Below, one piece after another: positions 22,395 through 44,468 of a stretch of 64,000 nucleotides of DNA (within the stretch, counting starts at the first letter, position 1; the number at the start of each line of letters is the position of its first letter). The notes beneath the pieces were generated by a model that was not told the DNA's origin, did not search any database, and was given only the letters and a program-made list of their open reading frames with translations. Made by a program: the position numbers and the translations under genes. Source of the DNA: Escherichia coli (GTDB taxonomy: Bacteria > Pseudomonadota > Gammaproteobacteria > Enterobacterales > Enterobacteriaceae); assembly GCF_048403405.1 (NCBI RefSeq), contig NZ_CP183129.1; one strand, written 5' to 3'.

Positions 22395-24674
22395 ATGGAT
22401 GACCAGTTAAAACAAAGTGCACTTGATTTCCATGAATTTCCAGTTCCAGGGAAAATCCAGGTTTCTCCAACCAAGCCTCTGGCAACGCAGCGCGATCTGG
22501 CGCTGGCCTACTCACCAGGCGTTGCCGCACCTTGTCTTGAAATCGAAAAAGACCCGTTAAAAGCCTACAAATATACCGCGCGCGGTAACCTGGTGGCGGT
22601 GATCTCTAACGGTACGGCGGTGCTGGGGTTAGGCAACATTGGCGCGCTGGCAGGCAAACCGGTGATGGAAGGCAAGGGCGTTCTGTTTAAGAAATTCGCC
22701 GGGATTGATGTATTTGACATTGAAGTTGATGAACTCGACCCGGACAAATTTATTGAAGTCGTCGCCGCGCTTGAACCGACCTTCGGCGGCATCAACCTCG
22801 AAGACATTAAAGCGCCAGAATGTTTCTATATTGAACAGAAACTGCGCGAGCGGATGAATATTCCGGTATTCCACGACGATCAGCACGGCACGGCAATCAT
22901 CAGCACTGCCGCCATCCTCAACGGTTTGCGCGTGGTGGAGAAAAACATCTCTGACGTGCGGATGGTGGTTTCCGGCGCGGGTGCCGCAGCAATCGCCTGT
23001 ATGAACCTGCTGGTAGCGCTGGGTCTGCAAAAACATAACATCGTGGTTTGCGACTCAAAAGGCGTTATCTATCAGGGCCGTGAGCCAAACATGGCGGAAA
23101 CCAAAGCCGCATATGCGGTGGTGGATGACGGCAAACGTACCCTCGATGATGTGATTGAAGGCGCGGATATTTTCCTCGGCTGTTCCGGCCCGAAAGTGCT
23201 GACCCAGGAAATGGTGAAGAAAATGGCTCGAGCGCCAATGATCCTGGCGCTGGCGAACCCGGAACCGGAAATTCTGCCGCCGCTGGCGAAAGAAGTGCGT
23301 CCGGATGCCATCATCTGCACCGGTCGTTCCGACTACCCGAACCAGGTGAACAACGTTCTTTGCTTCCCGTTCATCTTCCGTGGCGCGCTGGACGTTGGCG
23401 CAACGGCTATCAATGAAGAGATGAAACTGGCGGCAGTACGCGCGATTGCAGAACTGGCCCATGCGGAACAGAGTGAAGTGGTGGCTTCAGCTTATGGCGA
23501 TCAGGATCTGAGCTTTGGTCCGGAATACATCATTCCAAAACCGTTTGATCCGCGCTTGATCGTTAAGATCGCTCCTGCGGTCGCTAAAGCCGCGATGGAG
23601 TCGGGCGTGGCGACGCGTCCGATTGCTGATTTCGACGTCTACATCGACAAGCTGACGGAGTTCGTTTACAAAACCAACCTGTTTATGAAGCCGATTTTTT
23701 CCCAGGCTCGCAAAGCGCCGAAGCGCGTCGTTCTGCCGGAAGGGGAAGAGGCGCGCGTTCTGCATGCCACTCAGGAACTGGTAACGCTGGGGCTGGCGAA
23801 ACCGATCCTTATCGGTCGTCCGAACGTGATCGAAATGCGCATTCAGAAACTGGGCTTGCAGATCAAAGCGGGTGTTGATTTTGAGATCGTCAATAACGAA
23901 TCCGATCCGCGCTTTAAAGAGTACTGGACTGAATACTTCCAGATCATGAAGCGTCGCGGTGTCACTCAGGAACAGGCTCAGCGTGCGCTGATCAGTAATC
24001 CGACAGTGATCGGCGCAATCATGGTTCAGCGTGGCGAAGCCGATGCAATGATCTGCGGTACGGTGGGCGATTATCATGAACATTTTAGCGTGGTAAAAAA
24101 TGTCTTTGGTTATCGCGATGGCGTTCACACCGCAGGTGCCATGAACGCGCTGCTGCTGCCGAGTGGTAACACCTTTATTGCCGATACCTACGTCAATGAC
24201 GAACCAGACGCAGAAGAGCTGGCGGAGATCACCTTGATGGCGGCAGAAACTGTTCGTCGTTTTGGCATTGAGCCGCGTGTGGCTCTGTTGTCGCACTCCA
24301 ACTTTGGTTCTTCTGACTGCCCGTCGTCGAGCAAAATGCGTCAGGCGCTGGAACTGGTCAGGGAACGTGCACCAGAACTGATGATTGATGGTGAAATGCA
24401 CGGCGATGCAGCGCTGGTGGAAGCGATTCGCAGCGACCGTATGCCGGACAGCCCTTTGAAAGGTTCCGCTAATATTCTGGTGATGCCGAACATGGAAGCT
24501 GCCCGCATTAGTTACAACTTATTGCGCGTTTCCAGCTCGGAAGGTGTGACTGTCGGCCCGGTGCTGATGGGCGTGGCGAAACCGGTTCACGTGTTAACGC
24601 CGATCGCATCGGTACGTCGTATCGTCAACATGGTGGCGCTAGCCGTGGTTGAAGCACAAACCCAACCGCTGTAA
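22395..24674 (+). CDS. maeB: NADP-dependent malic enzyme (malic enzyme core + phosphotransacetylase-like C-terminal domain)
   Basis: 759 aa, [44 protein letters not shown]... Confidence 0.93.
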
Positions 24675-24692
24675 TTCATTCTTAACTCTCAC

Positions 24693-24727
24693 GCTTACCC
24701 TGAATATTCAGGGTAAGCGGTTTTCCT
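24693..24727 (+). terminator. strong intrinsic terminator after maeB
   Basis: Perfect palindrome GCTTACCCTGAATA/TATTCAGGGTAAGC followed by GGTTTTCC, 19 bp after the maeB stop. Confidence 0.8.
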
Positions 24728-24966
24728 GAAATATATTAGCAAAGCTTATTACTGAGTTTGCGAATAATAAAAAAAGCAGTATATAAAATATCTCGATATT
24801 ATTTTATTTATATTCATGCCTCGCATATGAAAGTTTATTCATAACAGTAAATATCTCTCCATTCTTAGTGATCTACCTCACCTTTTAAACGCGCTTGCCG
24901 AATTTTGTTATTTACTCTGACGAAAAATTGTCACGATACACGAAAGTTTTTCACAGGCGGCGACTC

Positions 24967-25302
24967 ATGGATAAAGAACGCATCATTCAGGAATTTGTGC
25001 CCGGCAAACAGGTCACACTGGCGCATCTCATCGCGCATCCCGGCGAGGAACTGGAGAAGAAAATCGGCGTTCCTGATGCGGGCGCAATCGGCATTATGAC
25101 GCTAACTCCCGGCGAAACGGCGATGATCGCCGGTGATTTAGCACTAAAAGCCGCCGATGTGCATATCGGTTTTCTCGACCGTTTTAGCGGCGCGTTGGTG
25201 ATTTATGGCTCGGTGGGTGCAGTAGAAGAAGCGTTATCACAAACCGTCAGCGGTTTAGGGCGTTTATTAAATTATACGCTTTGTGAAATGACCAAAAGTT
25301 AA
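24967..25302 (+). CDS. eutS: ethanolamine-utilisation microcompartment shell protein EutS (BMC domain)
   Basis: ATG 24967: [57 protein letters not shown]... (111 aa). The track start at 24895 is upstream in-frame in an AT-rich leader. Confidence 0.9.
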
Positions 25303-25314
25303 TACGAGGCATTC

Positions 25315-25794
25315 ATGAAACGAATTGCGTTTGTGGGTACCGTCGGGGCAGGAAAAACAACGTTATTTAATGCGTTGCAGGGAGATTATACCCTCGCCAG
25401 AAAAACGCAGGCCGTAGAATTTAATGATAAGGGCGATATTGATACGCCGGGTGAATATTTTAGCCATCCCCGCTGGTATCACGCCTTAATTACCACGCTA
25501 CAGGATGTGGACATGCTGATCTATGTCCATGGCGCGAATGACCCGGAAAGTCGGTTGCCTGCCGGGTTGCTGGATATTGGCGTCAGCAAACGGCAAATCG
25601 CCGTCATCAGTAAAACGGACATGCCAGATGCTGACGTCGCCGCAACGCGAAAGTTATTGCTTGAGACGGGCTTCGAAGAGCCGATTTTCGAGCTAAACAG
25701 CCACGACCCGCAAAGCGTGCAGCAACTGGTGGATTATCTGGCATCTCTCACCAAACAGGAGGAAGCAGGTGAAAAAACTCATCACAGCGAATGA
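25315..25794 (+). CDS. eutP: EutP, P-loop NTPase of the eut operon
   Basis: 159 aa; Walker A GTVGAGKTT. Confidence 0.9.
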   Translation: MKRIAFVGTVGAGKTTLFNALQGDYTLARKTQAVEFNDKGDIDTPGEYFSHPRWYHALITTLQDVDMLIYVHGANDPESRLPAGLLDIGVSKRQIAVISKTDMPDADVAATRKLLLETGFEEPIFELNSHDPQSVQQLVDYLASLTKQEEAGEKTHHSE

Positions 25795-26470
25795 TATTCG
25801 TGAAGCACACGCGCGCGGCGAACAGGCAATGTCCGTGGTTCTGCGCGCCAGCATTATTACCCCGGAAGCCCGTGAAGTGGCAGATCTACTGGGTTTTACC
25901 ATCACTGAATGTGATGAATCGACCCCGGTAACGGCGTCCGTTCCCGCCTGCGTGCCAGCCGATAAAACCGAAAGCCAGCGTATCCGCGAAACCATCATCG
26001 CCCAGCTACCGGAAGGCCAGTTTACCGAAAGCCTGGTCGCGCAGCTGATGGAAAAAGTGATGAAGGAAAAACAGTCACTGGAGCAGGGTGCAATGCAGCC
26101 GAGTTTCAAATCGGTGACCGGCAAAGGCGGCATCAAAGTTATTGATGGCAGCAGCGTCAAGTTTGGTCGTTTCGACGGCGCAGAGCCGCATTGCGTGGGC
26201 TTGACTGATCTTGTGACCGGAGACGACGGCAGCAGCATGGCCGCCGGTTTTATGCAGTGGGAGAACGCATTCTTCCCGTGGACCCTGAACTACGACGAAA
26301 TCGACATGGTGCTGGAAGGGGAGCTGCATGTTCGCCACGAAGGCGAAACCATGATCGCCAAAGCAGGCGACGTAATGTTTATCCCGAAAGGCTCCAGCAT
26401 CGAATTTGGTACGACATCCAGCGTGAAATTCCTGTATGTCGCCTGGCCGGCTAACTGGCAATCCCTATGA
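25769..26470 (+). CDS. eutQ: EutQ, cupin-fold protein (acetate kinase activity reported)
   Basis: 233 aa; overlaps eutP by 26 bp in a different frame. Confidence 0.88.
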   Translation: MKKLITANDIREAHARGEQAMSVVLRASIITPEAREVADLLGFTITECDESTPVTASVPACVPADKTESQRIRETIIAQLPEGQFTESLVAQLMEKVMKEKQSLEQGAMQPSFKSVTGKGGIKVIDGSSVKFGRFDGAEPHCVGLTDLVTGDDGSSMAAGFMQWENAFFPWTLNYDEIDMVLEGELHVRHEGETMIAKAGDVMFIPKGSSIEFGTTSSVKFLYVAWPANWQSL

Positions 26471-27270
26471 AAGATTTCATCACCGAAGCATGGCTAAGAG
26501 CGAATCATACGCTTAGCGAAGGCGCAGAGATCCATCTCCCTGCGGACAGTCGCCTGACGCCCTCTGCCCGGGAGTTGCTGGAAAGCCGCCATCTGCGCAT
26601 CAAGTTTATTGACGAGCAGGGCCGCCTGTTTGTTGACGATGAACAGCAGCAGCCGCAGCCCGTTCACGGGCTGACCAGTAGTGATGAACATCGGCAGGCG
26701 TGCTGCGAACTGTGCCGCCAGCCGGTGGCGAAAAAGCCGGACACGCTGACTCACCTGTCGGCGGAAAAAATGGTCGCCAAAAGCGATCCGCGTCTGGGTT
26801 TTCGCGCGGTTCTCGACAGCACCATTGCGCTGGCAGTGTGGCTGCAAATTGAACTGGCGGAACCGTGGCAGCCGTGGCTGGCGGACATCCGCTCGCGTCT
26901 TGGCAACATTATGCGCGCCGATGCGCTGGGGGAACCGCTGGCCTGCCAAGCGATTGTCGGGCTTTCTGACGAAGATCTGCATCGGCTTTCTCATCAGCCG
27001 CTGCGCTATCTTGGTCACGATCATCTGGTGCCGGAAGCCAGCCACGGGCGCGATGCGGCGTTACTCAATCTGCTACGCACCAAAGTGCGGGAAACCGAAA
27101 CCGTAGCGGCGCAGGTGTTTATAACCCGCAGTTTTGAAGTATTACGCCCGGACATCTTGCAGGCGCTGAACCGCCTTTCGAGCACGGTCTACGTGATGAT
27201 GATCCTGAGCGTAACGAAGCAGCCGCTAACGGTGAAGCAGATCCAACAACGACTGGGGGAAACGCAATGA
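26467..27270 (+). CDS. eutT: EutT, ATP:cob(I)alamin adenosyltransferase
   Basis: 267 aa; 4-bp overlap (ATGA) with eutQ. Confidence 0.88.
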
Positions 27271-28283
27271 TTATTGAACGTTGTCGTGAACTGGCGTTGC
27301 GAGCGCCCGCCAGAGTGGTTTTTCCGGATGCGTTAGATCAACGTGTGCTGAAAGCCGCGCAATATTTACATCAACAAGGTCTGGCAACGCCCATTCTGGT
27401 CGCCAATCCGTTTGAACTTCGTCAGTTTGCGCTCAGTCACGGCGTGGCGATGGACGGGCTACAGGTGATAGATCCGCATGGCAACCTCGCAATGCGGGAA
27501 GAATTTGCTCTCCGCTGGCTGGCCCGTGCGGGCGAAAAAACGCCGCCGGATGCGTTGGAAAAACTCACCGATCCGCTGATGTTCGCTGCCGCAATGGTCA
27601 GCGCCGGGACAGCGGATGTCTGTATCGCGGGCAATCTCTCTTCCACGGCGAATGTGCTGCGTGCCGGATTACGCATTATTGGCTTACAGCCAGGCTGTAA
27701 AACGCTCTCCTCCATTTTCCTGATGCTGCCACAGTACAGTGGCCCCGCATTGGGCTTTGCCGATTGCAGCGTAGTGCCACAGCCGACGGCGGCGCAGCTG
27801 GCGGATATCGCGCTTGCCAGCGCCGAAACCTGGCGCGCCATCACCGGAGAAGAGCCGCGCGTGGCGATGCTGTCGTTTTCCAGCAACGGTAGTGCCCGTC
27901 ACCCCTGCGTTGCCAACGTCCAGCAGGCGACAGAAATCGTCCGTGAGCGCGCACCGAAGCTGGTGGTGGATGGCGAGTTGCAGTTTGACGCCGCCTTCGT
28001 GCCGGAAGTGGCGGCGCAAAAAGCGCCTGCCAGCCCGCTACAAGGCAAGGCCAATGTGATGGTTTTTCCGTCGCTGGAAGCCGGAAATATTGGCTACAAA
28101 ATCGCACAACGACTCGGCGGATATCGTGCCGTCGGGCCATTGATACAAGGGCTTGCCGCGCCGATGCACGATCTCTCTCGTGGTTGTAGCGTGCAGGAAA
28201 TTATCGAGCTGGCGCTGGTGGCAGCTGTGCCGCGTCAGACAGAAGTGAACCGCGAAAGCAGTTTACAAACACTGGTTGAATGA
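27267..28283 (+). CDS. eutD: EutD, phosphotransacetylase
   Basis: 338 aa, Pta-like (resembles the C-terminal domain of maeB/pta); 4-bp overlap with eutT. Confidence 0.9.
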
Positions 28284-28321
28284 ACGGTCCCGTTCTGGAC
28301 CCTGATAAAGAGGAAAGCACA

Positions 28322-28615
28322 ATGGAAGCATTAGGAATGATCGAAACCCGGGGCCTGGTTGCACTGATTGAGGCTTCTGACGCGATGGTGAAAGCTGCGC
28401 GCGTCAAGCTGGTTGGTGTTAAGCAGATTGGCGGCGGCCTGTGTACTGCCATGGTTCGTGGTGATGTTGCAGCCTGTAAAGCCGCGACCGACGCAGGTGC
28501 TGCAGCGGCACAGCGTATCGGCGAGCTGGTATCTGTACACGTTATCCCGCGTCCGCACGGCGACCTGGAAGAAGTCTTCCCGATCGGCCTGAAAGGCGAT
28601 AGCAGCAACCTGTAA
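28322..28615 (+). CDS. eutM: EutM, hexameric BMC shell protein
   Basis: ATG 28322: [55 protein letters not shown]... (97 aa). The track start at 28280 is upstream in-frame. Confidence 0.92.
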
Positions 28616-28623
28616 TCACCCTG

Positions 28624-28660
28624 TGTGACGTCGATTCGGGCGTCACGCTCTCTCCTTTTT
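28624..28660 (+). other. stem-loop with U-rich tail in the eutM-eutN spacer (possible partial terminator or mRNA-stability element)
   Basis: GTGACG-tcgattcggg-CGTCAC followed by GCTCTCTCCTTTTTCAGTTTTCC, inside a 106-bp spacer in an otherwise tightly packed operon. Confidence 0.5.
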
Positions 28661-28721
28661 CAGTTTTCCTTCCGCGGAGGGTAGGGGGAGCTTTTACCTG
28701 AAATACGCCACGGAGGCGGGT

Positions 28722-29009
28722 ATGAAACTGGCAGTCGTCACTGGACAAATTGTTTGTACCGTACGCCATCACGGACTGGCGCATGACAAATTGCTGATGG
28801 TGGAAATGATTGATCCACAAGGTAATCCTGACGGGCAATGCGCCGTCGCCATCGACAATATTGGCGCGGGAACCGGGGAGTGGGTGTTGCTGGTGAGTGG
28901 CAGTTCTGCCCGCCAGGCGCATAAAAGCGAAACATCACCGGTCGATCTGTGCGTGATTGGCATCGTCGATGAGGTGGTGTCTGGCGGTCAGGTAATTTTC
29001 CACAAATAA
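28722..29009 (+). CDS. eutN: EutN, pentameric vertex shell protein
   Basis: 95 aa, MKLAVVTGQIVCTVRHHGLAHDKLLMVEMIDPQGNPDGQCAVAIDNIGAG... Confidence 0.9.
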   Translation: MKLAVVTGQIVCTVRHHGLAHDKLLMVEMIDPQGNPDGQCAVAIDNIGAGTGEWVLLVSGSSARQAHKSETSPVDLCVIGIVDEVVSGGQVIFHK

Positions 29010-29020
29010 GGCAGAACATC

Positions 29021-30424
29021 ATGAATCAACAGGATATTGAACAGGTGGTGAAAGCGGTACTGCTGAAAATGCAAAGCAGTGACACGCCGCCCGCCGCCGT
29101 TCATGAGATGGGCGTTTTCGCGTCCCTGGATGACGCCGTTGCGGCAGCCAAAATTGCCCAGCAAGGGTTAAAGAGCGTGGCAATGCGCCAGTTAGCCATT
29201 GCTGCCATTCGTGAAGCAGGCGAAAAACACGCCAGAGATTTAGCGGAACTTGCCGTCAGTGAAACCGGCATGGGCCGCGTCGAAGATAAATTTGCCAAAA
29301 ACGTCGCTCAGGCGCGCGGCACACCAGGCGTTGAGTGCCTCTCACCACAGGTGCTGACCGGTGACAACGGCCTGACCCTGATTGAAAACGCACCCTGGGG
29401 CGTGGTGGCTTCGGTGACGCCTTCCACTAACCCGGCGGCAACCGTAATTAACAACGCCATCAGCCTGATTGCCGCGGGCAACAGCGTCATTTTTGCCCCG
29501 CATCCGGCGGCGAAAAAAGTCTCCCAGCGGGCGATTACGCTGCTCAACCAGGCGATTGTTGCCGCAGGCGGGCCGGAAAACTTACTGGTTACTGTGGCCA
29601 ATCCGGATATCGAAACCGCACAACGCTTGTTCAAGTTTCCCGGCATCGGCCTGCTGGTGGTGACCGGCGGCGAAGCGGTAGTAGAAGCGGCGCGTAAACA
29701 CACCAATAAACGTCTGATTGCCGCAGGCGCTGGCAACCCGCCGGTAGTGGTGGATGAAACCGCTGACCTCGCCCGTGCTGCTCAGTCCATCGTCAAAGGC
29801 GCGTCTTTCGATAACAACATCATTTGTGCCGACGAAAAGGTACTGATTGTTGTTGATAGCGTAGCCGATGAACTGATGCGTCTGATGGAAGGCCAGCACG
29901 CGGTGAAACTGACCGCAGAGCAGGCGCAGCAGCTGCAACCGGTGTTGCTGAAAAATATCGACGAGCGCGGAAAAGGCACCGTCAGCCGTGACTGGGTTGG
30001 TCGCGATGCGGCGAAAATCGCGGCGGCAATCGGCTTTGAAGTTCCGGAACAAACGCGACTGCTGTTTGTAGAAACCACCGCAGAACATCCGTTTGCTGTG
30101 ACTGAACTGATGATGCCGGTGCTGCCCGTCGTGCGCGTCGCCAACGTGGCGGATGCCATTGCGCTGGCGGTGAAACTGGAAGGCGGTTGCCATCACACGG
30201 CGGCAATGCACTCGCGCAACATCGAGAACATGAACCAGATGGCGAACGCCATTGATACCAGCATTTTCGTTAAGAACGGACCGTGCATTGCCGGGCTGGG
30301 GCTGGGCGGGGAAGGCTGGACCACCATGACCATCACCACGCCAACCGGTGAAGGGGTAACCAGCGCGCGTACGTTTGTCCGTCTGCGTCGCTGTGTATTA
30401 GTTGATGCGTTTCGCATTGTTTAA
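29021..30424 (+). CDS. eutE: EutE, CoA-acylating acetaldehyde dehydrogenase
   Basis: 467 aa aldehyde dehydrogenase family with catalytic Cys context (NIICADEKV). Confidence 0.9.
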   Translation: MNQQDIEQVVKAVLLKMQSSDTPPAAVHEMGVFASLDDAVAAAKIAQQGLKSVAMRQLAIAAIREAGEKHARDLAELAVSETGMGRVEDKFAKNVAQARGTPGVECLSPQVLTGDNGLTLIENAPWGVVASVTPSTNPAATVINNAISLIAAGNSVIFAPHPAAKKVSQRAITLLNQAIVAAGGPENLLVTVANPDIETAQRLFKFPGIGLLVVTGGEAVVEAARKHTNKRLIAAGAGNPPVVVDETADLARAAQSIVKGASFDNNIICADEKVLIVVDSVADELMRLMEGQHAVKLTAEQAQQLQPVLLKNIDERGKGTVSRDWVGRDAAKIAAAIGFEVPEQTRLLFVETTAEHPFAVTELMMPVLPVVRVANVADAIALAVKLEGGCHHTAAMHSRNIENMNQMANAIDTSIFVKNGPCIAGLGLGGEGWTTMTITTPTGEGVTSARTFVRLRRCVLVDAFRIV

Positions 30425-30434
30425 GGAGTAACCG

Positions 30435-31271
30435 ATGGCGCACGACGAACAATGGCTCACCCCACGTCTGCAAACGGCGGCAACGCTGTGTAACCAGACG
30501 CCCGCCACGACGGAGTCTCCGCTGTGGCTGGGGGTAGATCTGGGCACCTGCGATGTGGTGTCGATGGTTGTCGACCGCGACGGTCAGCCGGTGGCGGTAT
30601 GCCTCGACTGGGCTGATGTGGTCCGCGACGGCATCGTCTGGGATTTCTTCGGTGCGGTCACCATTGTTCGTCGCCATCTCGACACTCTTGAGCAGCAATT
30701 CGGTCGCCGTTTTAGCCATGCGGCGACCTCATTTCCTCCTGGTACGGACCCGCGTATTTCCATCAACGTGCTGGAGTCTGCCGGACTGGAAGTGAGCCAT
30801 GTGCTGGATGAGCCAACCGCAGTTGCGGATCTGCTGCAACTGGACAACGCCGGTGTAGTGGATATCGGCGGTGGCACCACCGGCATTGCCATCGTGAAAA
30901 AGGGCAAGGTGACTTACTCGGCAGATGAAGCCACCGGCGGACATCATATCTCTCTGACTCTCGCCGGAAATCGCCGTATTTCGCTGGAAGAGGCGGAGCA
31001 GTACAAGCGCGGTCACGGTGACGAGATTTGGCCTGCGGTGAAACCGGTGTACGAAAAAATGGCGGACATTGTCGCCCGGCATATTGAAGGGCAGGGCATT
31101 ACTGATTTATGGCTGGCGGGCGGCTCTTGTATGCAACCGGGCGTGGCGGAACTGTTTCGCAAACAATTCCCGGCGTTACAGGTGCATCTACCGCAGCACA
31201 GTTTGTTTATGACCCCGCTGGCGATCGCCAGTAGCGGGCGAGAGAAAGCGGAGGGGATCTATGCAAAATGA
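30435..31271 (+). CDS. eutJ: EutJ, actin/Hsp70-fold chaperone-like protein
   Basis: 278 aa; sugar-kinase/Hsp70/actin-fold motifs (DLGTCDVVS, VDIGGGTTGIAIV). Confidence 0.88.
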   Translation: MAHDEQWLTPRLQTAATLCNQTPATTESPLWLGVDLGTCDVVSMVVDRDGQPVAVCLDWADVVRDGIVWDFFGAVTIVRRHLDTLEQQFGRRFSHAATSFPPGTDPRISINVLESAGLEVSHVLDEPTAVADLLQLDNAGVVDIGGGTTGIAIVKKGKVTYSADEATGGHHISLTLAGNRRISLEEAEQYKRGHGDEIWPAVKPVYEKMADIVARHIEGQGITDLWLAGGSCMQPGVAELFRKQFPALQVHLPQHSLFMTPLAIASSGREKAEGIYAK

Positions 31272-32448
31272 ATTGCAGGCCGCGCTCTTTCAGGCGTTCG
31301 ATACCCTGAATCTGCAACGGGTAAAAACATTTAGCGTTCCACCGGTGACGCTTTGCGGTCCGGGCGCGGTGAGCAGTTGTGGGCAGCAAGCGCAAACGCG
31401 TGGGCTGAAACATCTGTTCGTGATGGCAGACAGCTTTTTGCATCAGGCAGGGATGACCGCCGGGCTGACGCGTAGCCTGGCCGTTAAAGGTATCGCCATG
31501 ACGCTCTGGCCATGTCCGGTGGGCGAACCATGCATCACCGACATGTGTGCAGCCGTGGCGCAGTTGCGTGAATCAGGCTGTGACGGGGTGATTGCGTTTG
31601 GCGGCGGCTCGGTGCTGGATGCAGCAAAAGCCGTGGCGTTGCTGGTGACGAACCCGGATAGCACGCTGGCAGAGATGTCAGAAACCAGCGTTCTGCAACC
31701 GCGCCTGCCGTTGATTGCCATTCCAACTACCGCCGGAACCGGTTCTGAAACCACCAACGTAACGGTGATTATCGACGCGGTGAGCGGGCGCAAGCAGGTG
31801 TTAGCCCACGCCTCGCTGATGCCGGATGTGGCGATTCTCGACGCTGCGCTGACCGAAGGCGTGCCGTCGCATGTCACGGCGATGACCGGTATCGACGCGT
31901 TAACCCATGCTATTGAAGCGTACAGCGCGCTGAACGCTACACCGTTTACCGACAGCCTGGCGATTGGCGCAATCGCGATGATTGGTAAATCACTGCCGAA
32001 AGCGGTGGGCTACGGTCATGACCTTGCCGCGCGCGAGAGCATGTTGCTGGCTTCATGCATGGCGGGAATGGCGTTTTCCAGTGCGGGGCTTGGGTTATGC
32101 CACGCGATGGCGCATCAGCCGGGGGCGGCGCTGCATATTCCGCACGGTCTGGCGAACGCCATGTTGTTGCCAACGGTGATGGAATTTAACCGGATGGTTT
32201 GTCGTGAACGCTTTAGTCAGATTGGTCGGGCGCTGCGAACTAAAAAATCCGACGATCGTGACGCTATTAACGCGGTAAGTGAGCTGATTGCGGAAGTCGG
32301 GATTGGTAAACGACTGGGCGATATTGGTGCGACATCTGCGCATTACGGCGCATGGGCGCAGGCCGCGCTGGAAGATATTTGTCTGCGCAGCAACCCGCGT
32401 ACCGCCAGCCTGGAGCAGATTGTCGGCCTGTACGCAGCGGCGCAATAA
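31261..32448 (+). CDS. eutG: EutG, iron-containing alcohol dehydrogenase
   Basis: 395 aa Fe-ADH family (GGGSVLDAAK); 11-bp overlap with eutJ. Confidence 0.9.
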   Translation: MQNELQAALFQAFDTLNLQRVKTFSVPPVTLCGPGAVSSCGQQAQTRGLKHLFVMADSFLHQAGMTAGLTRSLAVKGIAMTLWPCPVGEPCITDMCAAVAQLRESGCDGVIAFGGGSVLDAAKAVALLVTNPDSTLAEMSETSVLQPRLPLIAIPTTAGTGSETTNVTVIIDAVSGRKQVLAHASLMPDVAILDAALTEGVPSHVTAMTGIDALTHAIEAYSALNATPFTDSLAIGAIAMIGKSLPKAVGYGHDLAARESMLLASCMAGMAFSSAGLGLCHAMAHQPGAALHIPHGLANAMLLPTVMEFNRMVCRERFSQIGRALRTKKSDDRDAINAVSELIAEVGIGKRLGDIGATSAHYGAWAQAALEDICLRSNPRTASLEQIVGLYAAAQ

Positions 32449-32452
32449 AAGT

Positions 32453-32574
32453 GTACGGACAGTCCCCTCGCCCCTTTGGGGAGAGGGTTAGGGTGAGGGG
32501 AACAGAGTCGCGCCGGTGCAAACAATTACCCTCACCCCGGCCCCTCGGCTTCCAGAGTGAGGGAAAAACCCACT
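32453..32574 (+). repeat. GC-rich multi-palindromic repeat, copy 2 (extended), between eutG and eutH
   Basis: Core 32455-32512 nearly identical to 19062-19110; further inverted arms GGGTGAGGG / CCCTCACCC / GTGAGGG within a 169-bp gap inside the eut operon. Confidence 0.6.
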
Positions 32575-32617
32575 TTCAGCATTGGCAATAAATAACAACT
32601 AACAGGGAGTAAAGGCG

Positions 32618-33844
32618 ATGGGAATTAACGAAATCATCATGTACATCATGATGTTCTTTATGCTGATAGCTGCCGTAGACAGGATCCTGTCGCAGTTCGG
32701 TGGTTCTGCTCGTTTCCTCGGTAAGTTCGGTAAAAGTATCGAAGGATCAGGCGGTCAGTTCGAAGAAGGCTTTATGGCAATGGGCGCTCTGGGCCTGGCG
32801 ATGGTCGGTATGACCGCGCTGGCACCGGTACTGGCTCACGTACTCGGGCCGGTGATTATCCCGGTTTACGAAATGCTCGGCGCAAACCCGTCAATGTTCG
32901 CCGGAACACTGCTGGCGTGCGATATGGGCGGGTTCTTCCTCGCCAAAGAGCTGGCGGGCGGCGACGTAGCAGCGTGGCTATACTCTGGGTTAATTCTCGG
33001 GTCGATGATGGGGCCAACGATTGTGTTTTCCATTCCGGTGGCGCTCGGCATTATCGAACCTTCTGACCGTCGTTATCTGGCGCTCGGCGTGCTGGCGGGC
33101 ATTGTGACCATTCCGATTGGCTGTATTGCTGGTGGTCTGGTTGCTATGTACTCCGGTGTGCAGATCAACGGTCAGCCGGTGGAATTCACCTTTGCGCTGA
33201 TCCTGATGAACATGATCCCGGTACTTATCGTTGCGGTGCTGGTGGCGCTGGGGCTGAAATTCATCCCGGAAAAAATGATCAACGGCTTCCAGATCTTCGC
33301 CAAATTCCTCGTTGCATTGATCACCCTCGGTCTTGCTGCCGCGGTAGTGAAATTCCTCCTTGGCTGGGAACTGATCCCCGGTCTGGATCCTATCTTTATG
33401 GCCCCTGGCGACAAACCCGGTGAAGTGATGCGCGCCATTGAAGTTATCGGTTCTATCTCCTGCGTTCTGTTAGGGGCGTACCCGATGGTGCTGCTGCTGA
33501 CCCGCTGGTTTGAAAAACCGCTGATGAGCGTCGGTAAAGTGCTGAATATGAACAACATCGCGGCAGCTGGCATGGTGGCAACGCTTGCTAACAACATCCC
33601 GATGTTCGGCATGATGAAGCAGATGGATACCCGCGGCAAAGTCATCAACTGCGCCTTCGCCGTTTCCGCTGCTTTCGCCCTGGGTGACCACTTAGGCTTC
33701 GCCGCTGCCAACATGAACGCCATGATTTTCCCGATGATTGTCGGCAAGTTGATCGGCGGCGTAACGGCGATTGGCGTGGCGATGATGCTGGTGCCAAAAG
33801 AAGACGCGACCGCGGCCAAAACCGAAGCGGAGGCACAATCGTGA
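32618..33844 (+). CDS. eutH: EutH, ethanolamine permease
   Basis: 408 aa polytopic membrane protein; ATG 32618 after GGGAG. Confidence 0.9.
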   Translation: MGINEIIMYIMMFFMLIAAVDRILSQFGGSARFLGKFGKSIEGSGGQFEEGFMAMGALGLAMVGMTALAPVLAHVLGPVIIPVYEMLGANPSMFAGTLLACDMGGFFLAKELAGGDVAAWLYSGLILGSMMGPTIVFSIPVALGIIEPSDRRYLALGVLAGIVTIPIGCIAGGLVAMYSGVQINGQPVEFTFALILMNMIPVLIVAVLVALGLKFIPEKMINGFQIFAKFLVALITLGLAAAVVKFLLGWELIPGLDPIFMAPGDKPGEVMRAIEVIGSISCVLLGAYPMVLLLTRWFEKPLMSVGKVLNMNNIAAAGMVATLANNIPMFGMMKQMDTRGKVINCAFAVSAAFALGDHLGFAAANMNAMIFPMIVGKLIGGVTAIGVAMMLVPKEDATAAKTEAEAQS

Positions 33845-35244
33845 ACACTCGCCAGCTACTGAGCGTCGGTATCGATATCGGCACCACCACCACCCAGGTG
33901 ATTTTCTCCCACCTGGAGCTGGTTAACCGTGCGGCGGTGTCGCAGGTGCCGCGCTACGAATTCATCAAACGCGAAATTAGCTGGCAAAGCCCGGTGTTCT
34001 TTACCCCTGTCGATAAACAGGGTGGTTTAAAAGAAGCGGAACTGAAAACCTTAATCCTGGAGCAATATCAGGCTGCGGGCATTGCGCCGGAAAGTGTTGA
34101 TTCTGGTGCCATCATCATCACCGGTGAAAGCGCGAAAACCCGCAACGCTCGCCCGGCGGTGATGACGCTCTCCCAGTCTCTGGGCGATTTTGTCGTCGCC
34201 AGCGCCGGGCCGCATCTCGAATCCGTGATCGCCGGTCACGGTGCCGGGGCGCAAACCCTTTCTGAACAACGGCTGTGTCGGGTACTGAATATCGATATCG
34301 GCGGTGGCACTGCGAACTACGCCCTGTTCGATGCCGGAAAAATCAGCGGCACCGCCTGCCTCAACGTCGGCGGTCGCCTGCTGGAAACCGACAGCCAGGG
34401 GCGCGTGGTTTACGCTCATAAACCGGGGCAGATGATTGTGGATGAGTGCTTCGGCGCAGGCACCGACGCCCGTTCGCTGACCGGCGCGCAGCTGGTGCAG
34501 GTTACCCGGCGGATGGCAGAGCTGATTGTCGAAGTGATTGACGGAACGCTTTCGCCGCTCGCGCAGGCATTAATGCAAACCGGTTTGCTGCCCGCAGGTG
34601 TTACGCCCGAAATCATTACGCTTTCTGGCGGCGTGGGCGAATGTTATCGCCACCAGCCCGCCGACCCGTTCTGTTTTGCCGATATCGGCCCGCTTCTGGC
34701 AACGGCGCTGCATGACCATCCGCGCCTGCGTGAGATGAACGTGCAGTTTCCGGCGCAAACCGTACGCGCCACGGTGATTGGCGCGGGTGCACATACCCTT
34801 TCGCTCTCTGGCAGCACAATCTGGCTGGAGGGCGTACAACTGCCGCTGCGCAATTTGCCGGTGGCGATCCCAATTGATGAAACGGATCTGGTGAGTGCCT
34901 GGCAACAGGCGCTGATTCAGCTGGATCTTGATCCCAATTCTGACGCGTACGTGCTGGCGCTTCCCGCCTCGCTGCCTGTGCGTTACGCCGCGGTACTGAC
35001 GGTCATCAACGCGCTGGTCGATTTCGTCGCGCGTTTTCCGAATCCGCATCCCCTGCTGGTGGTGGCCGGGCAGGACTTTGGTAAAGCTCTGGGCATGTTG
35101 TTGCGCCCACAGCTACAACAACTCCCGTTGGCAGTCATTGACGAAGTGATTGTCCGCGCGGGGGACTATATCGACATTGGTACGCCTCTTTTTGGCGGAT
35201 CGGTTGTGCCGGTGACGGTGAAATCACTCGCATTTCCTTCCTGA
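33841..35244 (+). CDS. eutA: EutA, ethanolamine ammonia-lyase reactivase
   Basis: 467 aa; GTG start 33841 overlapping the eutH stop; ASKHA-fold motifs (GIDIGTTTT). Confidence 0.9.
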   Translation: MNTRQLLSVGIDIGTTTTQVIFSHLELVNRAAVSQVPRYEFIKREISWQSPVFFTPVDKQGGLKEAELKTLILEQYQAAGIAPESVDSGAIIITGESAKTRNARPAVMTLSQSLGDFVVASAGPHLESVIAGHGAGAQTLSEQRLCRVLNIDIGGGTANYALFDAGKISGTACLNVGGRLLETDSQGRVVYAHKPGQMIVDECFGAGTDARSLTGAQLVQVTRRMAELIVEVIDGTLSPLAQALMQTGLLPAGVTPEIITLSGGVGECYRHQPADPFCFADIGPLLATALHDHPRLREMNVQFPAQTVRATVIGAGAHTLSLSGSTIWLEGVQLPLRNLPVAIPIDETDLVSAWQQALIQLDLDPNSDAYVLALPASLPVRYAAVLTVINALVDFVARFPNPHPLLVVAGQDFGKALGMLLRPQLQQLPLAVIDEVIVRAGDYIDIGTPLFGGSVVPVTVKSLAFPS

Positions 35245-35255
35245 GGGAACGACTT

Positions 35256-36617
35256 ATGAAACTAAAGACCACATTGTTCGGCAATGTATATCAGTTTAAG
35301 GATGTAAAAGAGGTGCTGGCTAAAGCCAACGAACTGCGTTCGGGGGATGTGCTGGCGGGCGTTGCAGCGGCAAGCTCACAAGAGCGCGTGGCGGCAAAGC
35401 AGGTGTTGTCGGAAATGACCGTAGCGGACATCCGCAATAATCCGGTGATTGCCTATGAAGATGACTGCGTGACGCGGCTGATTCAGGACGACGTTAACGA
35501 AACGGCCTACAACCAGATTAAAAACTGGAGCATCAGCGAACTGCGTGAGTATGTCCTGAGCGATGAAACCAGCGTGGACGACATTGCCTTTACCCGCAAA
35601 GGGCTGACCTCGGAAGTGGTTGCGGCGGTAGCGAAGATTTGCTCCAACGCGGACCTGATCTACGGCGCGAAGAAAATGCCGGTAATCAAAAAGGCCAATA
35701 CCACCATCGGTATTCCGGGCACCTTCAGCGCCCGTTTGCAGCCAAATGACACCCGTGACGACGTGCAAAGTATCGCTGCGCAAATCTACGAAGGGCTTTC
35801 CTTCGGGGTGGGCGATGCGGTGATCGGCGTCAACCCGGTGACGGACGACGTGGAAAACTTAAGCCGCGTGCTGGACACCATCTACGGCGTGATCGACAAA
35901 TTCAACATTCCGACCCAGGGCTGCGTGCTGGCGCACGTCACCACCCAGATTGAAGCGATCCGTCGTGGCGCACCGGGCGGGCTGATTTTCCAGAGTATCT
36001 GCGGCAGCGAAAAAGGGCTGAAAGAGTTTGGCGTGGAGCTGGCGATGCTCGATGAAGCACGCGCAGTGGGCGCGGAGTTCAACCGTATCGCCGGGGAAAA
36101 CTGCCTCTACTTCGAAACCGGACAAGGTTCGGCGCTGTCCGCTGGCGCTAACTTCGGCGCTGACCAGGTGACGATGGAAGCGCGTAACTATGGGCTGGCG
36201 CGTCATTACGATCCGTTTATCGTCAACACCGTGGTCGGTTTTATTGGGCCGGAGTATCTCTACAACGACCGCCAGATTATCCGCGCGGGCTTAGAAGATC
36301 ACTTTATGGGCAAGCTGAGCGGCATCTCTATGGGCTGTGACTGCTGCTACACCAACCACGCTGACGCTGACCAGAACCTCAACGAAAACCTGATGATCCT
36401 GCTCGCCACCGCAGGCTGTAACTACATCATGGGGATGCCGCTGGGTGATGACATCATGCTCAACTACCAGACTACGGCCTTCCACGACACCGCCACTGTG
36501 CGTCAGTTACTCAACCTGCGCCCGTCACCGGAGTTTGAACGCTGGCTGGAAAGCATGGGCATTATGGCAAACGGTCGCCTGACCAAACGGGCGGGCGATC
36601 CGTCACTGTTCTTCTGA
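35256..36617 (+). CDS. eutB: EutB, ethanolamine ammonia-lyase large subunit
   Basis: 453 aa, MKLKTTLFGNVYQFKDVKEVLAKANELRSGDVLAGVAA...; starts 11 bp after eutA. Confidence 0.93.
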   Translation: MKLKTTLFGNVYQFKDVKEVLAKANELRSGDVLAGVAAASSQERVAAKQVLSEMTVADIRNNPVIAYEDDCVTRLIQDDVNETAYNQIKNWSISELREYVLSDETSVDDIAFTRKGLTSEVVAAVAKICSNADLIYGAKKMPVIKKANTTIGIPGTFSARLQPNDTRDDVQSIAAQIYEGLSFGVGDAVIGVNPVTDDVENLSRVLDTIYGVIDKFNIPTQGCVLAHVTTQIEAIRRGAPGGLIFQSICGSEKGLKEFGVELAMLDEARAVGAEFNRIAGENCLYFETGQGSALSAGANFGADQVTMEARNYGLARHYDPFIVNTVVGFIGPEYLYNDRQIIRAGLEDHFMGKLSGISMGCDCCYTNHADADQNLNENLMILLATAGCNYIMGMPLGDDIMLNYQTTAFHDTATVRQLLNLRPSPEFERWLESMGIMANGRLTKRAGDPSLFF

Positions 36618-36637
36618 TGACGCGGAGATAACACATC

Positions 36638-37525
36638 ATGGATCAAAAACAGATTGAAGAAATTGTACGCAGCGTGATGGCGTCAATGGGACAAGCGGCC
36701 CCCGCGCCGTCAGAAGCAAAGTGCGCCACCACCACCTGTGCGGCACCGGTGACCTCGGAAAGCTGCGCGCTGGATTTAGGCTCTGCGGAAGCAAAAGCGT
36801 GGATTGGCGTTGAAAACCCGCATCGCGCAGACGTATTAACAGAACTGCGTCGCAGCACCGTGGCCCGCGTTTGTACCGGTCGTGCCGGTCCGCGTCCGCG
36901 TACCCAGGCGTTGCTGCGTTTCCTGGCCGATCACTCTCGTTCGAAAGATACCGTACTGAAAGAAGTGCCGGAAGAGTGGGTGAAAGCGCAGGGCTTGCTG
37001 GAAGTCCGCTCTGAAATTAGCGACAAAAATCTCTACCTGACTCGTCCGGATATGGGCCGCCGCCTGTGTGCAGAAGCTGTTGAAGCGCTGAAAGCGCAGT
37101 GTGTTGCCAATCCGGACGTGCAGGTCGTTATTTCTGATGGCCTGTCAACTGATGCGATCACCGTGAACTACGAAGAGATCCTGCCACCGCTGATGGCGGG
37201 CCTGAAACAGGCCGGGCTGAAAGTCGGTACGCCATTCTTTGTTCGTTATGGTCGCGTGAAGATTGAAGATCAGATCGGTGAGATCCTCGGCGCGAAAGTA
37301 GTGATCCTACTGGTGGGGGAACGCCCGGGATTAGGGCAGTCAGAAAGCCTCTCCTGCTACGCCGTTTACTCGCCGCGTATGGCGACCACCGTTGAGGCCG
37401 ATCGCACCTGCATCTCTAACATTCACCAGGGCGGCACGCCGCCGGTTGAAGCCGCAGCCGTCATTGTGGATTTGGCGAAACGTATGCTGGAGCAGAAAGC
37501 ATCCGGCATCAACATGACCCGATAA
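36638..37525 (+). CDS. eutC: EutC, ethanolamine ammonia-lyase small subunit
   Basis: 295 aa, [19 protein letters not shown]... Confidence 0.92.
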
Positions 37526-37534
37526 GGAGGCATC

Positions 37535-38194
37535 ATGCCAGCTTTAGATTTGATTCGACCGTCGGTCACCGCCATGCGGGTGATTGCCTCTGTTAACGCC
37601 GAATTTGCGCGTGAACTGAAATTGCCGCCGCATATTCGTAGCCTCGGGCTGATTTCTGCTGATTCCGATGACGTCACCTACATTGCGGCTGACGAAGCGA
37701 CCAAGCAGGCGATGGTCGAAGTGGTGTATGGCCGCTCGCTGTATGCGGGAGCTGCACACGGACCGTCACCGACTGCCGGTGAAGTGCTGATTATGCTCGG
37801 TGGGCCAAACCCGGCGGAAGTGCGTGCTGGTCTGGATGCGATGGTTGCGCATATTGAAAATGGCGCGGCTTTCCAGTGGGCTAATGATGCGCAAGATACG
37901 GCATTCCTGGCACATGTAGTTTCGCGTACCGGTTCTTATCTCTCATCAACCGCCGGGATCACGCTTGGCGATCCGATGGCGTATCTGGTGGCACCGCCGC
38001 TGGAAGCGACCTATGGCATTGATGCAGCCCTGAAATCTGCCGACGTACAGCTGGTGACCTATGTCCCGCCACCGTCTGAAACCAACTACTCGGCAGCATT
38101 TTTAACCGGTAGCCAGGCAGCGTGTAAAGCAGCCTGTAACGCCTTTACCGATGCAGTGCTGGAAATCGCGCGTAATCCAATCCAGCGTGCGTAA
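37535..38194 (+). CDS. eutL: EutL, tandem-BMC-domain (trimeric) shell protein
   Basis: 219 aa. Confidence 0.9.
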
Positions 38195-38206
38195 CGGAGG
38201 TTGCCG

Positions 38207-38707
38207 ATGATCAATGCACTGGGATTGCTGGAAGTGGACGGCATGGTCGCCGCGCTAGATGCTGCGGATGCCATGCTCAAAGCAGCTAACGTTCGTCTGC
38301 TCAGTCACGAAGTGCTTGACCCTGGTCGCCTAACGCTGGTGGTGGAAGGCGATCTGGCGGCGTGTCGTGCGGCGCTGGACGCAGGTTGTGCTGCCGCGAT
38401 GCGTACCGGGCGTGTCATCAGCCGCAAGGAGATCGGTCGGCCAGACGATGACACCCAGTGGCTGGTTACTGGCTTTAACCGCCAGCCTAAGCAACCCGTA
38501 AAGGAACCCGACGCGCCAGTTATCGTCGCGGAATCTGCTGACGAGTTGTTGGCGCTGTTAACATCAGTACGTCAGGGAATGACGGCAGGAGAAGTGGCTG
38601 CCCACTTTGGCTGGCCGCTGGAAAAAGCCAGAAATGCGCTCGAACAGCTCTTTTCTGCCGGGACGTTACGTAAACGCAGTAGTCGTTATCGTCTCAAGCC
38701 CCATTAA
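38207..38707 (+). CDS. eutK: EutK, BMC shell protein with C-terminal helix-turn-helix-like extension
   Basis: ATG 38207: MINALGLLEVDGMVAALDAADAMLKAANVRLL... (166 aa). The track start is TTG at 38201. Confidence 0.88.
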   Translation: MINALGLLEVDGMVAALDAADAMLKAANVRLLSHEVLDPGRLTLVVEGDLAACRAALDAGCAAAMRTGRVISRKEIGRPDDDTQWLVTGFNRQPKQPVKEPDAPVIVAESADELLALLTSVRQGMTAGEVAAHFGWPLEKARNALEQLFSAGTLRKRSSRYRLKPH

Positions 38708-38752
38708 CCTGTCGGAGGTGCCGGGTGTCCTACAACACCCGGCATTAACATC

Positions 38753-39805
38753 ATGAAAAAGACCCGTACAGCCAATTTGCACCATCTTTATCATGAACCC
38801 TTACCCGAAAACCTGAAGCTCACGCCGAAGGTCGAAGTGGATAATGTTCATCAACGACAGACAACGGATGTCTATGAACATGCTTTGACAATTACCGCCT
38901 GGCAGCAGATTTACGATCAGCTGCATCCGGGCAAGTTTCATGGTGAATTTACGGAAATTCTACTCGATGATATTCAGGTTTTTCGTGAATACACCGGTCT
39001 GGCGCTGCGTCAGTCGTGCCTGGTCTGGCCGAATTCGTTCTGGTTTGGCATTCCGGCGACGCGCGGTGAGCAGGGATTTATCGGTTCGCAATGTCTGGGA
39101 AGCGCAGAAATAGCGACGCGCCCTGGTGGAACCGAGTTTGAATTAAGTACGCCGGATGATTACACGATCCTTGGCGTAGTGCTTTCTGAAGATGTCATCA
39201 CCCGTCAGGCTAACTTTTTGCATAATCCGGATCGGGTATTACATATGCTGCGTAGCCAGTCGGCGCTGGAAGTGAAAGAGCAGCATAAAGCCGCGCTGTG
39301 GGGCTTTGTCCAACAGGCGCTGGCGACATTTTGCGAGAACCCGGAAAATCTTCATCAGCCTGCTGTGCGTAAAGTGCTGGGGGATAATTTGCTAATGGCG
39401 ATGGGGGCGATGCTGGAAGAAGCGCAGCCAATGGTGACGGCGGAAAGCATCAGTCATCAGAGTTACCGTCGGTTGCTTTCCCGCGCCCGTGAATATGTGC
39501 TGGAAAACATGTCTGAGCCGGTGACTGTGCTGGACTTGTGTAATCAACTGCATGTCAGCCGCCGCACGCTACAAAACGCGTTTCACGCTATTTTAGGCAT
39601 TGGCCCAAATGCGTGGCTGAAACGCATTCGCCTGAACGCCGTACGCCGCGAACTGATAAGCCCTTGGTCGCAAAGCACAACGGTAAAAGACGCCGCCATG
39701 CAGTGGGGATTCTGGCATCTGGGGCAATTTGCCACGGATTACCAGCAGCTGTTTGCCGAGAAGCCGTCGTTGACGCTGCATCAGCGGATGCGGGAATGGG
39801 GGTGA
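38753..39805 (+). CDS. eutR: EutR, AraC-family activator of the eut operon
   Basis: 350 aa; C-terminal AraC HTH (region around [33 protein letters not shown]). Confidence 0.9.
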
Positions 39806-44289: not shown

Positions 44290-44312
44290 GCGTTTCTGAT
44301 TCATTGATTAAA

Positions 44313-44345
44313 GGCCAGCCAGTAACACAACTGACTGGCCTTTTT
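44313..44345 (+). terminator. intrinsic terminator after yfeX
   Basis: GGCCAGCCAGT-aacaca-ACTGACTGGCC (one mismatch) followed by TTTTT. Confidence 0.7.
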
Positions 44346-44374
44346 ATTACTGCTTTAACGCCGCATACACTTGA

Positions 44375-44464
44375 TCAACTACTTTCTGTCAGAACAGGGT
44401 ATTTTGCGGCGCTGACGCTACAGCTGACAGCCAGCAGAGAAAGATAGAGCATTGTCCGTTTCAT
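44375..44464 (-). pseudogene. 29-codon ORF with Sec-signal-peptide-like sequence, 4 bp downstream of murP; possible remnant of the gene occupying this position in K-12 (yfeW/pbp4B)
   Basis: Minus-strand ATG (complement of 44462-44464) gives MKRTMLYLSLLAVSCSVSAAKYPVLTESS then TGA. Assignment as a remnant is an inference; I cannot verify similarity to YfeW. Confidence 0.35.
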
Positions 44465-44468
44465 GATA

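Follow-up and report, generated by a model that had tools for sequence, protein, structure and literature searches.

The DNA analyzed here, a stretch of 64,000 nucleotides referred to as the window, is part of the E. coli chromosome and extends from bcp/gcvR to yfeH. The eut operon was found between maeB and hemF, i.e., at the EUT1 position, with the gene order eutS-P-Q-T-D-M-N-E-J-G-H-A-B-C-L-K-R (24967-39805, all on the + strand). The genes were located by tblastn with the 17 Eut proteins of MG1655 and MaeB as queries against the window, and each query gave one full-length, gap-free match. The 17 Eut matches showed 97.5-100% identity to the MG1655 proteins, with EutB, EutM and EutN being identical:

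24967-25302, + strand, eutS, 111 aa, shell protein; 99.1% identity, full length
25315-25794, + strand, eutP, 159 aa; 97.5% identity, full length
25769-26470, + strand, eutQ, 233 aa; 98.7% identity, full length
26467-27270, + strand, eutT, 267 aa, corrinoid adenosyltransferase; 98.9% identity, full length
27267-28283, + strand, eutD, 338 aa, phosphotransacetylase; 99.4% identity, full length
28322-28615, + strand, eutM, 97 aa, shell protein; 100% identity, full length
28722-29009, + strand, eutN, 95 aa, shell vertex protein; 100% identity, full length
29021-30424, + strand, eutE, 467 aa, acetaldehyde dehydrogenase; 98.5% identity, full length
30435-31271, + strand, eutJ, 278 aa; 98.9% identity, full length
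31261-32448, + strand, eutG, 395 aa, alcohol dehydrogenase; 98.5% identity, full length
32618-33844, + strand, eutH, 408 aa, ethanolamine permease; 99.3% identity, full length
33841-35244, + strand, eutA, 467 aa, ethanolamine ammonia-lyase reactivase; 98.3% identity, full length
35256-36617, + strand, eutB, 453 aa, ethanolamine ammonia-lyase large subunit; 100% identity, full length
36638-37525, + strand, eutC, 295 aa, lyase small subunit; 99.7% identity, full length
37535-38194, + strand, eutL, 219 aa, shell protein; 98.6% identity, full length
38207-38707, + strand, eutK, 166 aa, shell protein; 98.8% identity, full length
38753-39805, + strand, eutR, 350 aa, AraC-type operon activator; 99.1% identity, full length

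Neighbouring eut genes were spaced by -26 to +169 nt, and the two largest spacers, between eutM and eutN (106 nt) and between eutG and eutH (169 nt), are present in K-12 too. As in EUT1, 17 full-length genes in order were found on one strand, tightly packed and free of foreign insertions. The preliminary description, made from the sequence alone, had already taken the 17 genes to be contiguous and intact on one strand, and this was confirmed both by tblastn and by the RefSeq annotation of the closely related NZ_OX030728.1, a human isolate from Spain in which all 17 eut genes are intact. The uninterrupted EUT1 operons of W3110, Nissle 1917, UPEC, EHEC and Salmonella enterica LT2 share the 17 genes, their order, their common strand and the location between maeB and hemF. 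In comparison to K-12, the Eut alleles differ by 0-2.5% at the protein level, and the repeat element between eutG and eutH is a different one.

The junction of eutA and eutB was read base by base at 35230-35270. The end of eutA (...gca ttt cct tcc TGA) is followed by the 11-nt spacer GGGAACGACTT and the start of eutB (ATG aaa cta aag...). According to the list of open reading frames, the stop codon TGA of eutA occupies 35242-35244 and the ATG of eutB begins at 35256. The Shine-Dalgarno sequence of eutB, GAGGG, is made up of the stop-codon A of eutA and the spacer and lies 8 nt ahead of the ATG. Three features are distinguished at this point:

35224-35236, + strand, 3' end of eutA beside the core, resembling the element-borne attR side in MG1655 and CUVM3
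35237-35244, + strand, CTTCCTGA core, present as a single copy and overlapping the eutA stop, from the comparison with the CPZ-55 ends in MG1655
35245-35255, + strand, eutA-eutB spacer, with the same sequence in MG1655 attR and in W3110

Thus, the 11 bp reported earlier between eutA and eutB follow directly from the reading frames 33841-35244 and 35256-36617. As a matter of gene order checked at each base, this result raises no question of chance. Between the two genes of the window there is neither an integrase gene nor other foreign DNA, so that the absence of a CPZ-55-type prophage from this eut operon was borne out, with no intZ and no element DNA at the junction.

In MG1655, this position is occupied. 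RefSeq annotates a "cryptic prophage CPZ-55" of 6,790 bp in NC_000913.3 (2558691-2565480), placed between eutB (b2441) and eutA (b2451), in agreement with the location given in the preliminary description. Its genes, intZ and yffL to yffS, are all oriented opposite to eut. The ends of CPZ-55 carry an 8-bp duplicate, CTTCCTGA, which contains the stop codon of eutA. Reading across the ends, attL shows CATTTCCTTCCTGA followed by ATGCGG, and attR shows GATTCTTCCTGA followed by GGGAACGACTTATG. In the orientation of eut, the eutA side reads CATTTCCTTCCTGA followed by ATGCGGTATT, and the eutB side reads CCAATCATCGATTCTTCCTGA followed by GGGAACGACTTATG. In the window, CATTTCCTTCCTGA is followed directly by GGGAACGACTTATG, i.e., the two bacterial halves meet over one copy of CTTCCTGA. 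Since the left half of attL and the right half of attR are joined across a single core, the window represents the unoccupied attB, as had been proposed. The same joined halves, with the core present once at the eutA stop, were obtained whether MG1655 or CUVM3 served for comparison. The window therefore equals MG1655 minus the 6,790-bp element and one CTTCCTGA copy; eutB begins 11 nt past eutA in the window and 6.8 kb past it in MG1655, and the same difference applies to BW25113.

Alignment of the window to the MG1655 locus by BLAST broke exactly at the junction, and the position given earlier for CPZ-55 is correct. One alignment ended at 35244 and the next began at 35222. CPZ-55 itself carries a degenerate version of the 3' end of eutA, which explains this overlap of 35222-35244. 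In CUVM3, the element side of attR (TCACTC...T.CTTCCTGA) agrees with the eutA 3' end at 16 of 21 positions, and 35224-35236 may belong to the site that the integrase recognizes. Positions 35237-35244 are best read as the predicted crossover region of an attB, empty here, that IntZ-type tyrosine integrases would use.

That CPZ-55 integrates immediately behind the stop codon of eutA has been described before, with an 8-bp duplication given as TCAGGAAG and a prevalence of 8% of strains (PMC6379469). In that work the integration was worded as "transposon-like", a reading that was rejected here. IntZ has the full architecture of a phage tyrosine integrase, with arm-binding, central and catalytic domains; the likeness of attR to the eutA 3' end extends past the 8-bp core; and independent, divergent elements occur at the same site. 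The domains of IntZ and the likeness between attR and eutA make an att crossover, rather than a target duplication, the best reading of the 8 bp. The insertion point, the 8-bp duplication, the prevalence of about 8% and the phenotype are all published, and the feature as such is already known; site-specific integration by a tyrosine integrase, with attP/attB likeness beyond the core, looks like a small refinement over this literature.

The site has also been called a "prophage insertion hot spot", and a different, "novel prophage" has been reported there in UPEC U71 (PMC6652756). The elements of CUVM3 and UPEC U71 use the same attB, which is occupied in those strains, and they differ in cargo, with intZ being 80-90% identical to that of K-12. 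The CUVM3 element at the eutA-eutB site is 9.9 kb long, includes intZ, yffS and a tape-measure gene, and carries CTTCCTGA at both ends. The CPZ-55 relatives were also considered as phage satellites, and the K-12 element does have a small-terminase-like gene. The tape-measure gene of CUVM3 disfavours this assignment and favours decayed tailed prophages.

To place the window among E. coli, 5,426 complete genomes were compared. With an 80% coverage threshold, which makes all of these counts approximate, the 1.2-kb eutA-eutB junction was present in one piece in 4,964 genomes (91.5%), while intZ abutted eutB in 405 (7.5%). A K-12-type CPZ-55 covering at least 80% of the length was present in 213 genomes, in 212 of them at an identity of at least 99%, and by name these are overwhelmingly laboratory derivatives of K-12. 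Divergent elements, with intZ 80-90% identical to K-12 intZ, were found in roughly 190 genomes, and other disruptions of the eutA-eutB site in a few dozen of the 5,426. One of the latter is strain 102651, in which three copies of IS903B scramble the junction, truncating eutA and eutB. Megablast with CPZ-55 gave hits in 417 genomes, and the lineage of the window was absent among the 40 matches listed, which were sampled evenly down the ranking. W3110, itself a K-12 reference, lacks CPZ-55 and its junction is identical to that of the window; the insertion is therefore not universal even in K-12. Thus, most E. coli have the uninterrupted eut operon, and with 91.5% of complete genomes uninterrupted it is the interrupted MG1655 that is the unusual one.

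With nothing separating eutA from eutB, read-through from eutS into eutBCLK and eutR is possible. Two features upstream of eutS bear on transcription:

24692-24719, + strand, terminator-like hairpin after maeB (maeB stop at 24674), strong, with a 12-bp stem and a T-rich tail
24720-24966, + strand, upstream region of eutS, presumed main eut promoter, EutR-responsive; from the alignment to K-12, with the function assigned by likeness

The hairpin is predicted to keep transcription of maeB from running on into the promoter region of eut. The region 24720-24966 is presumably the main promoter region, which we take from the established eut promoter PI of Salmonella and E. coli, and the 114 bp directly 5' of eutS are identical to K-12 in the alignment. 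A simple sigma-70 scan 5' of eutS returned no consensus promoter, as expected for an activator-dependent promoter, though the scan thereby adds nothing in favour of one. At the eutA-eutB junction, no terminator-like site was called on the + strand, no promoter was called, and the RNA is not unusually structured. The lack of a terminator-like site and of unusual structure fits co-transcription from the eutS promoter.

Published experiments show what an insertion at this site does. In Salmonella and E. coli, an ethanolamine/B12-dependent promoter PI lies 5' of eutS and a weak promoter PII serves eutR (PMC7617246, legend). Since eutR has this weak promoter of its own, the eut genes do not strictly form one transcription unit. 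With the prophage in place, BW25113 could still induce eutS and eutR but failed to induce eutB and made no microcompartments; in Nissle 1917, which has an intact operon, the genes were induced, microcompartments were formed and growth on ethanolamine was observed (PMC7617246). When the prophage was removed scarlessly, BW25113 behaved like the eut+ strain W3110, with ethanolamine used as nitrogen source (PMC11334477). Thus, the BW25113 insertion blocks the induction of eutB as well as the use of ethanolamine (PMC7617246, PMC11334477).

Taken together, the locus is read as a standard, uninterrupted 17-gene eut operon with a single, unoccupied attB and read-through to eutBCLK and eutR, to which a probability of roughly 93% was assigned. 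RNA polymerase would start 5' of eutS, at the promoter that depends on EutR, ethanolamine and B12, and would read on into eutBCLK and eutR. The ribosome-binding site of eutB would be near enough to the eutA stop for coupled translation. Transcription as a single unit is well supported by analogy, and translational coupling of eutA and eutB as well as the use of ethanolamine by this strain are likewise expected from published experiments with other E. coli strains and from the Salmonella precedent. In contrast to MG1655 and BW25113, the strain should be eut+ and, with B12, capable of using ethanolamine from the host. The MG1655/BW25113 lineage underlies many models, and since MG1655 is exceptional at eut, inferences about ethanolamine metabolism drawn from this lineage should not be carried over to wild strains. 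For the window itself, the result matters only as correct annotation, since its operon is in the ordinary E. coli state.

A more far-reaching role of the junction was considered improbable. An imperfect palindrome, TTTCCTT-CCT-GAGGGAA, at 35233-35249 covers both the stop codon of eutA and the Shine-Dalgarno sequence of eutB, and it might act both as a hairpin for translational coupling and as a core-type recognition site for IntZ, with integration and excision switching eut. The target of the prophage would then be held invariant by selection on the expression of eutA and eutB, and ethanolamine catabolism would be under a reversible switch resembling "active lysogeny", with the strain of the window in the ON state. 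The predicted RNA fold at the junction was not unusual (z = 0.22), and exact inverted repeats of at least 6 nt were not found at the CTTCCTGA core.

The emptiness of the site could also be secondary, an IntZ-type element having once integrated in this lineage and then been precisely excised, with attB restored. Site-specific excision leaves no scar, and CPZ-55 excises in K-12 at less than 1 per 100,000 cells (PMC3105296). K-12 is polymorphic at the site, with MG1655 occupied and W3110 empty at an otherwise identical junction, and the divergent intZ elements in roughly 190 genomes other than the K-12 type point to real traffic. With 91.5% of the genomes empty, however, a site that was never occupied is the parsimonious explanation, and six complete genomes with at least 99% identity over 25 kb were 100% identical to the window across the junction. 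A vacated site and one never occupied would look alike in the sequence, and the latter is taken as the default; past occupancy was judged very unlikely.

About equally small is the probability that the genes are intact, yet internal structures attenuate or process the transcript so that expression of eutBCLK needs other signals. Directly 3' of eutM, a stem-loop was found at 28623-28648 (10-bp stem, 6 GC, pyrimidine-rich tail), and the 169-bp spacer between eutG and eutH contains a G/C-rich palindromic repeat, unlike the K-12 spacer of 216 bp with its different repeat. Against attenuation, neither structure has a proper U-run, and terminator-like sites were overall not above chance (21 in the operon versus 16.8 ± 4.2 expected). 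In addition, eutB induction and growth on ethanolamine are seen in strains whose operons are intact and whose spacers at these points contain similar or other repeats (PMC7617246, PMC11334477). Attenuation could thus shape mRNA ratios but is unlikely to abolish downstream expression. Within the preferred reading of one uninterrupted operon, the term "one unit" may hide differences in mRNA abundance, as the eutM stem-loop and the eutG-eutH repeat spacer could modulate read-through.

An assembly artefact, i.e., a collapse or mis-join concealing an insertion, is excluded, since the 25-kb segment occurs at 100.0% (rounded) identity in six independent complete genomes, one of which, NZ_OX030728.1, differs from the window at just 2 of 64,000 positions, and the same arrangement is seen in nearly 5,000 further complete genomes. 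In strain ST2747 the 1.2-kb junction is 100% identical, with the whole window matching at only about 98% identity and with three structural differences.

The reference genome of K-12 W3110 (NC_007779.1, locus L009, 11100-11190) does not contain CPZ-55, the cryptic prophage, and its eutA-eutB junction is identical to that of the window. Thus, the prophage is polymorphic within K-12, with MG1655 and BW25113 being occupied and W3110 being empty. A W3110 strain was described as eut+ (PMC11334477), which is consistent with the empty site in the W3110 reference genome.

The att site used by CPZ-55 is occupied by a 9.9-kb relative in strain CUVM3 (NZ_CP116970.1, locus L005, 10089-20021). This element carries intZ, an HTH_17 (excisionase/AlpA-like) gene, yffS and a gene for a 726-aa tape-measure protein. 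Judged by this relative, CPZ-55 is probably what remains of a tailed prophage after decay. YffO of K-12 matched a small terminase subunit family. An intZ element was also found at the eutA-eutB site of strain 102651, a human stool isolate (NZ_CP189662.1, locus L006, 19192-33618). There, the element has been scrambled by three copies of IS903B and by IS3-family elements, and its cargo shows resemblance to gadC, to a decarboxylase fragment and to murI. Both eutA and eutB are truncated in this strain, and one eutB fragment is inverted.

Within the eut operon, the eutG-eutH spacer of the window (32449-32617) comprises 169 bp, part of which is a palindromic repeat rich in G/C (CCCCTCGCCCCTTTGGGGAGAGGGTTAGGGTGAGGGG ... 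CCCTCACCCCGGCCCCTCGG). In contrast, the K-12 spacer comprises 216 bp and is filled with REP/BIME-type copies, to which the palindromic repeat of the window is unrelated; the two spacers could be aligned only over the final ~35 bp before eutH. The spacer is a variable repeat slot within the operon. A hairpin was predicted in the 106-nt eutM-eutN spacer, starting 8 nt past the eutM stop codon:

28623-28648, + strand: stem-loop after eutM, 10-bp stem with 6 G-C pairs and a pyrimidine-rich tail

This predicted hairpin could act as an mRNA-stabilizing or attenuating element, raising the levels of EutS to EutM relative to the products of the downstream genes.

Nearly all of pbp4b (yfeW), encoding penicillin-binding protein 4B, is absent from the window (44290-44468), with the deletion point near 44380. 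As compared to ST2747 and K-12, 1,185 bp of the pbp4b region are missing, and the yfeX-murP interval retains ~117 bp. In NZ_OX030728.1, the genome nearly identical to the window, RefSeq lists what is left of the gene as a partial pseudogene. The deletion is a common polymorphism in E. coli, as 1,272 of the 5,426 complete genomes of this species carry the identical allele.

Over the 25-kb stretch 20001-45000, identity of at least 99% to the window was found for only 6 of the 5,426 complete genomes, while the remaining genomes reached at most ~98.6%; the window thus belongs to a sparsely sampled E. coli lineage. Among the members of this lineage are isolate 68 (Spain), MS 69-1, TUM1226, TUM14771, 4621 and GN02461.
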